Shown in pieces: positions 13,214 through 13,564 of a stretch of 22,914 nt of DNA. Both the position numbers and the translations under genes were made by a program. Under the pieces are notes generated by a model. The model was not told where the DNA came from, searched no databases, and saw nothing but the letters and a program-made list of their open reading frames with translations. Origin of the DNA: a virus (Duplodnaviria > Heunggongvirae > Uroviricota > Caudoviricetes); the IMG/VR virus record IMGVR_UViG_2703718780_000024, positions 1 to 22,914 of that record; one strand, written 5' to 3'. How positions within the stretch are numbered: the stretch's first letter is position 1; the number at the start of each line of letters is the position of its first letter.

Positions 13214-13266
13214 AAACGATTTGCGGGAAAAGGATAGTTAAGTAGAATTGCTGCGGGTGCTTGAGG

Positions 13267-13302
13267 CTATCTGCCTTGGGCATGAACACCAAAGGCAGAT
13301 AG
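13267..13302. other. Long imperfect hairpin at the left boundary of the AT-rich island
   Basis: CTATCTGCC (13267-13275) pairs with GGCAGATAG (13294-13302), plus an inner TTGG/CCAA pair. No flanking T-run, so it is not a canonical intrinsic terminator. Confidence 0.4.
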
Positions 13303-13523
13303 AGAAAAACCCACCCGACTATAAATCAAAGTGTATTACCCCCATTTGTTGGACGATGAAATGGGTTTAGTTAACTATGTCGGTATCGACATGACTAAAA
13401 CAACCTTAAATTGCTCGATTAATAGACAAGTAGTTTTGAAAGATTAAATTTATGCGATCCGGTATTTTCAAGGGATAGCCTTTATGAGGTTATCTTATGG
13501 GGTTAAAACATCAAGAACAGTTG

Positions 13524-13532
13524 TGTTATAAT
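13524..13532 (+). promoter_or_regulatory. Candidate extended -10 promoter element for the methyltransferase gene
   Basis: TGTTATAAT (TGn + TATAAT) lies about 32 nt upstream of ATG 13565. Confidence 0.35.
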
Positions 13533-13564
13533 ACATAGAAACTAATAAGAGACGTTGCAACTAT

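Follow-up and report, generated by a model that had tools for sequence, protein, structure and literature searches.

The 350-bp stretch at positions 13215-13564 of the window, the whole 22,914-nt piece of viral DNA that was analyzed, is composed of four unrelated pieces rather than a single unit. We consider it highly probable that these are the front end of a hok/sok locus, a scar of an IS150-family element within sok, an orphan spacer, and a mobile cassette with its own promoter. The long hairpin in the stretch is a fossil of a toxin mRNA, an RNA structure that belongs to the prophage backbone. This hok/sok relic was previously unannotated; all kinds of its components, as well as the disruption of sok by IS150, are already known.

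The gene order of the window, with an integrase at the left end followed by repressor/cro, the replication genes, the nin region, and a Q-type antiterminator, identified it as a lambdoid prophage. Prophage Sp10 of E. coli O157:H7 Sakai and another 171 complete E. coli genomes carry positions 13100-13700 without a single difference (100% identity). The first-pass annotation had described 13215-13564 as non-coding, which was borne out, with no ORF of at least 50 aa found within it and not a single feature assigned there in the Sakai and EDL933 annotations. No terminator was called on the + strand of this stretch. The GC content dropped from about 50% to 31-38% over approximately 13300 to 17400, a region that had been called an island with the 350-bp stretch as its left boundary. 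A compositional boundary indeed lies here, but the hok locus is broken at 13331/13332 and the edge of the mobile cassette is at 13503, 170 nt beyond that break. The low-GC island is a composite of the IS relic, the orphan spacer, the cassette, and a decayed hok remainder.

Just upstream, at 13130-13213 on the + strand, lies a small ORF encoding a hydrophobic peptide of 27 aa (MTWPEAFTTVGIAMAVALVVYSICRWG), which is unannotated, matched no Pfam family, and overlaps the stop codon of the upstream gene with its start codon. This ORF travels with the hok leader in the Stx phage 933W and other phages, and the equivalent CDS is annotated in ON470583. The homology to 933W and to the locus L227 begins exactly at 13130, and mosaic blocks start at the ATG of the 27-aa ORF. 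Since the whole block starting at 13130, 13002, or 12741 was also present in other lambdoid backbones, the composite now moves as a unit. Among the records compared, PP818812.1 ("Actinobacillus phage vB_Apl-pPE4", L004) had 90-92% DNA identity to this E. coli lambdoid nin region, and the shared region includes an E. coli-type hok locus and the DUF1367/YbcO/Q genes. Its assignment to the host Actinobacillus pleuropneumoniae looks doubtful.

The first piece begins with a predicted relic of the hok promoter on the + strand (13220-13248), in which a -35 element TTTGCG (13220-13225) and a -10 element TAGAAT (13243-13248) are separated by a 17-nt spacer. The -10 hexamer is common to 91 of 107 hok leaders and the -35 hexamer to 49 of the same 107, at identical offsets. 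The hok transcript would start at G13255, the nucleotide to which position 1 of the Rfam model aligns. The following 77 nt (13255-13331, + strand) correspond to the first part of a hok-family toxin mRNA and comprise the tac element (13255-13266) and the conserved 5′ stem-loop (13267-13302), the latter being the "long hairpin" of the first-pass annotation. In functional hok/sok systems, the 5′ tac element, the structures adjacent to it, and the 3′ fbi element control a folding switch, which holds back translation of the toxin mRNA until processing; both tac/fbi and the metastable 5′ structure of the hok mRNA have been described (PMC9841398).

This identification was based on homology, synteny, and covariation. 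Rfam family RF01794 ("sok") matched 13255-13379 on the + strand with 50.2 bits (E = 2.9e-9), which is below its gathering score of 59, and the alignment was best over the hairpin and the 12 nt preceding it, with a weak 3′ half. An nhmmer search with a hok HMM built from 95 distinct hok loci aligned 13213-13312 to model positions 4-103 (E = 2.1e-29). In a megablast search of phages, 13130-13312 was 92% identical to the segment just 5′ of the annotated sokW, mokW, and hokW genes of 933W, and an annotated Hok or "host killer" gene follows the equivalent leader segment in two further phage records; in all, the leader followed by annotated hok genes was found in four phage comparators. When IMG/VR was scanned with a pattern for the leader, more than 120 loci came back, the hairpin was present in the 107 IMG/VR leaders that were collected, and the leader of the window matched that of the uninterrupted locus L145 at 115 of 124 positions.

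The hairpin was confirmed, with a correction to its pairing. Its arms (13267-13280 and 13289-13302) are 14 nt each, 93% complementary, and separated by 8 nt, and ViennaRNA paired them as 11 bp, a 1-nt bulge, and 2 bp, not as the 9 + 4 bp described before. The 77-nt leader folded at -27.8 kcal/mol (z = -4.38), and none of 200 shuffled sequences folded as well. Across 28 distinct leaders, 90% of the hairpin cells were paired, compared with 32-52% when the 3′ partners were slid; the leaders had been collected with a pattern fixing most of the left-arm bases, which limits the variation in this set. One pair occurred as AU in 15 leaders, GC in 8, UA in 1, and GU in 1, and two other pairs alternated between C-G and U-G, wobbles that fit an RNA helix on the + strand. 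As had been stated, no T-run follows the hairpin; the next sequence is AGAAAAACCC, the features of an intrinsic terminator are lacking, and no terminator was called on the + strand. Terminator-like calls on the minus strand over the hairpin were rejected as weak consensus matches with no real T-run. Both the tac element and the conserved stem-loop were recognized by sequence and by structure. Together, the Rfam and HMM matches, the phage synteny, and the covariation identify the 13267-13302 hairpin as the conserved 5′ stem-loop of a hok-family toxin mRNA, and of the roles proposed earlier, that of a regulatory RNA structure is the one that was upheld.

Another proposed role was that the hairpin marks the insertion junction of the island or acts as an att-like site for site-specific recombination. 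The hairpin does lie within about 30 nt of the break, at the place where the GC content drops. However, it is also present in intact hok loci without the island, and the break at 13331/13332 falls outside it, 29 nt downstream. In the cassettes of L210-L215, whose flanks represent three more unrelated contexts, nhmmer gave no match, and neither hok sequence nor a comparable hairpin is present. Furthermore, no copy was found at the right boundary, where the only match was that of the palindrome to itself, and the island carries no integrase or other recombinase gene. We therefore regard a junction or recombination site as very improbable. Since the leader runs uninterrupted into mok/hok in many phages, the comparison with related prophages, which had been put forward as a check, placed the hairpin in a widespread hok/sok leader and the junction elsewhere.

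The position of the break follows from the uninterrupted loci. In L145, L115, L120, and L195, the sequence runs ...CTATAAATCGAAG|TGAGGCCCC on into mok/hok, and the loci of the same leader subtype (L145, L115, L120, L129, L140, and L195) read ...CCCACCCGACTATAAATCGAAG followed by TGAGGCCCC and mok/hok. The window matches the uninterrupted loci up to G13331 and diverges after it, so the hok locus is broken at 13331/13332. The comparators of the hokW type, whose sok region is 21 nt longer, lose similarity exactly at 13312, whereas the L145 type continues to 13331; position 13312 reflects an allelic difference in the sok region and is not the break point. The sokW gene of 933W is annotated at 2676-2746 on the minus strand of its record (L001), in which 2501-2683 aligns to 13130-13312 of the window. 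By positional homology, the break would thus lie inside the former sok gene, and a putative 3′-terminal stump of this antisense antitoxin gene, of about 27 nt (13305-13331, minus strand), remains to its left, rather than a contiguous sok gene. The 5′ part of sok would then have been on the far side of the break together with its promoter; a scan of 17161-17260 detected no promoter on the minus strand.

The second piece, 13332-13364 on the + strand, consists of 33 nt that survive from the left terminal inverted repeat of an IS3-family element resembling IS150. It matched nucleotides 1-34 of IS150 at 30 of 34 positions, with a Smith-Waterman score of 46 compared with a maximum of 26 among shuffled sequences. 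In addition, 13313-13364 matched a single chromosomal site in around 890 E. coli genomes with approximately 90% identity, and the match ended exactly at 13364. At this site, the hokA leader meets the left end of a 1443-bp IS150 copy with a flanking AAG duplication. The junction reads ...ATAAATCAAAG|TGTACTGCACCCATTTTGTTGGACGATGAAATGG in hokA and ...ATAAATCAAAG|TGTATTACCCCCATTTGTTGGACGATGAAATGG in the window. The same insertion point, ...ATAAATCAAAG|TGTA..., was also found in the prophage locus L220 (IMGVR_UViG_2851949629_000008), which carries a full 1443-bp IS150 in its sok region (reverse strand, about 3922-5780), at the identical nucleotide of the prophage hok leader; the AAG target is duplicated, and the hok gene that follows is intact. 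L220 likely represents an earlier stage of the arrangement in the window.

Only a relic, and not an element, is present at 13332-13364. No IS150 right inverted repeat, orfA/orfB transposase, or clear 3-bp target duplication was found, and the AAG at the right edge is ambiguous as a target duplication because AAAGAAA belongs to the cassette. Similarity to IS150 did not exceed that of shuffled sequences on either strand of 13365-13502 and 17065-17277. An IUPAC pattern for the inverted repeat had no match in the window; this pattern was one base too long and missed the window's own relic as well. The second stem reported earlier, CCCATTT/AAATGGG at 13341-13347 and 13359-13365, is present as an internal feature of the IS150-like end, but the fold of 13332-13380 was not better than chance (z = -0.22, with 69 of 200 shuffles as good). 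Insertions of this type are well documented: MG1655 carries sokA::IS150, more than 400 isolates carry sokE::IS150 (PMC11551753), and evolution experiments repeatedly yielded new IS150 insertions beside hokC, hokE, and mokB (PMC5419217). With its scar, the window provides a further case of this known IS150 hotspot in sok/hok loci.

The third piece is an AT-rich orphan spacer of 138 nt (13365-13502). Searches of phages, plasmids, E. coli genomes, IMG/VR, and metagenomes recovered it only in the present configuration, and it had no similarity to other cassette contexts and no Rfam match. It folded somewhat better than its shuffled versions (z = -2.37, 4 of 200 shuffles) and contains the palindrome ATGTCG-gtat-CGACAT. 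A second AT-rich orphan spacer, at 17162-17257 to the right of the cassette, likewise matched only copies of this arrangement.

The fourth piece is the left end of a mobile three-gene cassette of 3.66 kb (13503-17161). It encodes a C5 DNA methyltransferase (13565-14716, + strand), a PF20553 protein ("putative O-methyltransferase"; 14684-15676, minus strand), and a GHKL ATPase (HATPase_c_3; 15673-17064, minus strand), all assigned by Pfam. In front of the methyltransferase gene, a promoter is predicted on the + strand at 13503-13532, with a -35 element TTAAAA (13503-13508), an 18-nt spacer, and the extended -10 element TGTTATAAT at 13524-13532 that had been pointed out in the first-pass annotation. 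With 10 of 12 consensus matches and the TG, this was the best promoter-like site in the region; bare consensus matches to such sites numbered 4 compared with 2.9 expected, which is not above chance. The extended -10 element TGnTAnAAT is conserved in the related cassettes L210, L211, L212, and L213, AGTTGTGnTAnAATA is kept in four other lambdoid prophage contexts with unrelated upstream flanks, and the homology to the cassette in other prophages starts at the -35 element at 13503. The site has the TGn and good hexamer of a sigma-70 extended -10 promoter, and its conservation among homologues raises it from a consensus match to the probable promoter of the methyltransferase gene (ATG at 13565).

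The limits of the cassette were drawn from its homologues, which lie in several unrelated lambdoid prophages, in the interval between the replication genes and Q. The cassette had 76-80% DNA identity to those of L210-L213, which are sited in other lambdoid nin regions, and the DNA homology to the window was limited to 13503-17161 in L210 and to 13503-17188 in L211, leaving a fuzzy right edge at 17161-17188. None of the flanks of the homologues is related to the window, and they represent three types that have no relation to each other; L210 and L211 share one type and L213 and L214 another. The related methyltransferases are 77-85% identical and have the same convergent PF20553 and GHKL ATPase genes beside them. 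No hok or IS pieces were found beside the more distant homologues from Enterobacter, Kluyvera, Rouxiella, and others (L010-L089).

Further observations concern the cassette itself. At their 3′ ends, the convergent methyltransferase and PF20553 genes share 33 bp (14684-14716), an arrangement also present in L210-L213, which means that the two transcription units must run into each other. A strong promoter-like site, TTGACT-16-TAAAAT (17144-17117, minus strand), was detected for the ATPase/PF20553 operon. It is overlapped by a palindrome at 17124-17141 (CGCTTCGCATGCGAAG), the CTTC...GAAG arms of which are kept in related cassettes and which may be an operator. The three genes were kept as a unit, with varying gene order, in approximately 26 of the 80 loci fetched (L010-L089), and the trio is spread over Enterobacteriaceae, Halomonas, Dyella, Chloroflexi, Thermodesulfovibrio, and others. 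The two non-methylase genes had no sequence match in PADLOC, NCBIfam, or PDB, and a literature search for PF20553 returned nothing. The trio looks like an uncharacterized defence module similar to restriction-modification (R-M) systems. A match to Rfam rli31 at 15111-15212 (E = 0.38, 27 bits compared with a gathering score of 80) was rejected as chance.

Beyond the cassette, 3.9 kb from the break, a decayed AT-rich hok remainder on the + strand (17258-17484) comprises a coding relic, an fbi-like element, and a weakened terminator, as indicated by nhmmer and colinear alignments. Positions 17278-17456 matched hok HMM positions 254-437 (E = 2.8e-8), colinear with the left half. When 13215-13331 and 17161-17500 were joined, the product aligned end to end with whole hok loci, although 17161-17277 can be assigned to hok only tentatively, and the right junction was bracketed to between 17161 and about 17258. 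The 3′ UTR of the pPE4 hok gene was 89% identical to 17441-17477. The hok coding relic is AT-rich and contains in-frame stops and a frameshift, and neither its individual frames nor a frameshift-repaired peptide matched Pfam Hok_Gef, so the right half is assigned on DNA-level evidence only. The fbi-like element (17439-17451) pairs with tac at -9.9 kcal/mol, compared with -19.3 kcal/mol in an intact locus, and together with the terminator (17460-17484, one stem mismatch) it sits 4.2 kb from tac.

The promoter, tac, the hairpin, and the fbi-like and terminator-like elements are all still recognizable, which could be taken to mean that the locus is a working hok/sok system in an unusual arrangement, with the toxin encoded elsewhere in the interval. 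Against this stand the lack of a Hok-like ORF in 13215-13564, the stops, frameshift, and failed Pfam Hok match of the right-half relic, the splitting of sok by 3.8 kb, and a tac/fbi duplex of halved stability. No intact Hok ORF of about 50 aa follows the leader in either part, and no intact hok gene was found anywhere in the window. We consider a working system extremely improbable; with neither a toxin ORF nor a complete sok gene, the toxin-antitoxin system is dead.

For the preferred reading, a broken hok/sok locus followed by an IS150 scar, a spacer, and a mobile cassette, the order of events that we infer, as the most economical one, is as follows. A prophage-borne hok/sok type I toxin-antitoxin locus would have existed first. 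An IS150-family element would then have inserted into sok at its preferred site, parting the hok promoter and leader from mok/hok. Subsequently, the IS body would have been lost and the cassette acquired, leaving behind the 33-nt IS scar and the orphan spacers. The uncoupled hok remainder may then have decayed in place or been swapped for a diverged AT-rich copy; alternatively, the cassette may have brought the AT-rich remainder along from a different hok locus.

The only plausible residual activity of the relic is read-through from the hok promoter toward the methyltransferase gene, since no terminator separates the two. The leader might accordingly have been co-opted, with its promoter and hairpin now serving as a working long 5′ UTR that adds to methyltransferase expression or regulates it, for instance through stabilization of the transcript or a constitutive low-level supply of methylase before the restriction-like genes are made. 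The -10 TAGAAT and -35 TTTGCG elements are intact and match the family consensus, the hairpin is intact, no + strand terminator was found between 13255 and 13565, and the block from 13130 onward moves as a unit among lambdoid backbones, all of which would suit such a role. On the other hand, the outer pairing of tac and its fbi partner have decayed, and the 172 identical E. coli copies are no guide to selection. Since the cassette has its own conserved promoter and functions in other phages without hok, being found in four prophage contexts lacking hok sequence, co-option appears unlikely. A broader version, in which the sok sites targeted by IS150 in prophage hok loci are reusable landing pads, where an IS inserts first, its body is exchanged for defence cargo, and the orphaned constitutive hok promoter and stable hairpin are kept to supply protective basal methyltransferase expression, is speculative and in our estimation quite unlikely.

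In terms of annotation, a stretch described only as structured and non-coding in a prophage of a well-studied pathogen resolves into known parts. The case also indicates that the borders of a compositional "island" can overstate the mobile unit, which here spans 13503-17161 instead of 13313-17440. As an object for further work, the cassette trio, which is conserved across phyla, is more promising than the hok relic.

Compared with known systems, the locus shares with the prototype hok/sok of plasmid R1 the architecture that the Rfam model recognizes, with tac at the 5′ end and a stable stem-loop beside it, and has an fbi-like 3′ element where R1 has the fbi complementary to tac, but R1 carries a functional post-segregational killing system, while the copy in the window has no toxin ORF or complete Sok gene. 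Among the closest known systems are the lambdoid phage loci, namely hokW/sokW of 933W and those of ON470583, PP818812, L145, and L220, which have the same promoter, tac, and 5′ hairpin with 92-93% identity. 933W and other lambdoid hok loci also have the same small upstream ORF and the same class of position in accessory regions, but in these phages the locus is intact and annotated with mok/hok and sok, unlike that of the window. The cassette resembles the "moron" and other accessory cassettes of lambdoid nin regions, which are likewise self-contained and have their own promoter and sharp homology edges; classic morons, however, are single genes between a promoter and a terminator, whereas the cassette is a convergent three-gene R-M-like module. 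The nearest parallel for the break itself is hokA/sokA::IS150 of E. coli K-12 (Pedersen & Gerdes, 1999, as cited in PMC11551753), together with sokE::IS150, in which an IS150-type left end interrupts the leader at the very nucleotide at which it breaks in the window. As in hokA/sokA::IS150, sok is inactivated and hok is uncoupled from its promoter. In contrast to the K-12 hokA locus, only 33 nt of the IS remain, with approximately 12% divergence from K-12 IS150, the IS body has been replaced by the 138-nt spacer and the 3.66-kb methyltransferase cassette, and the locus is prophage-borne with a heavily decayed hok remainder, while the hokA ORF is intact. The window thus adds a prophage example to the documented habit of IS150 of hitting sok genes.
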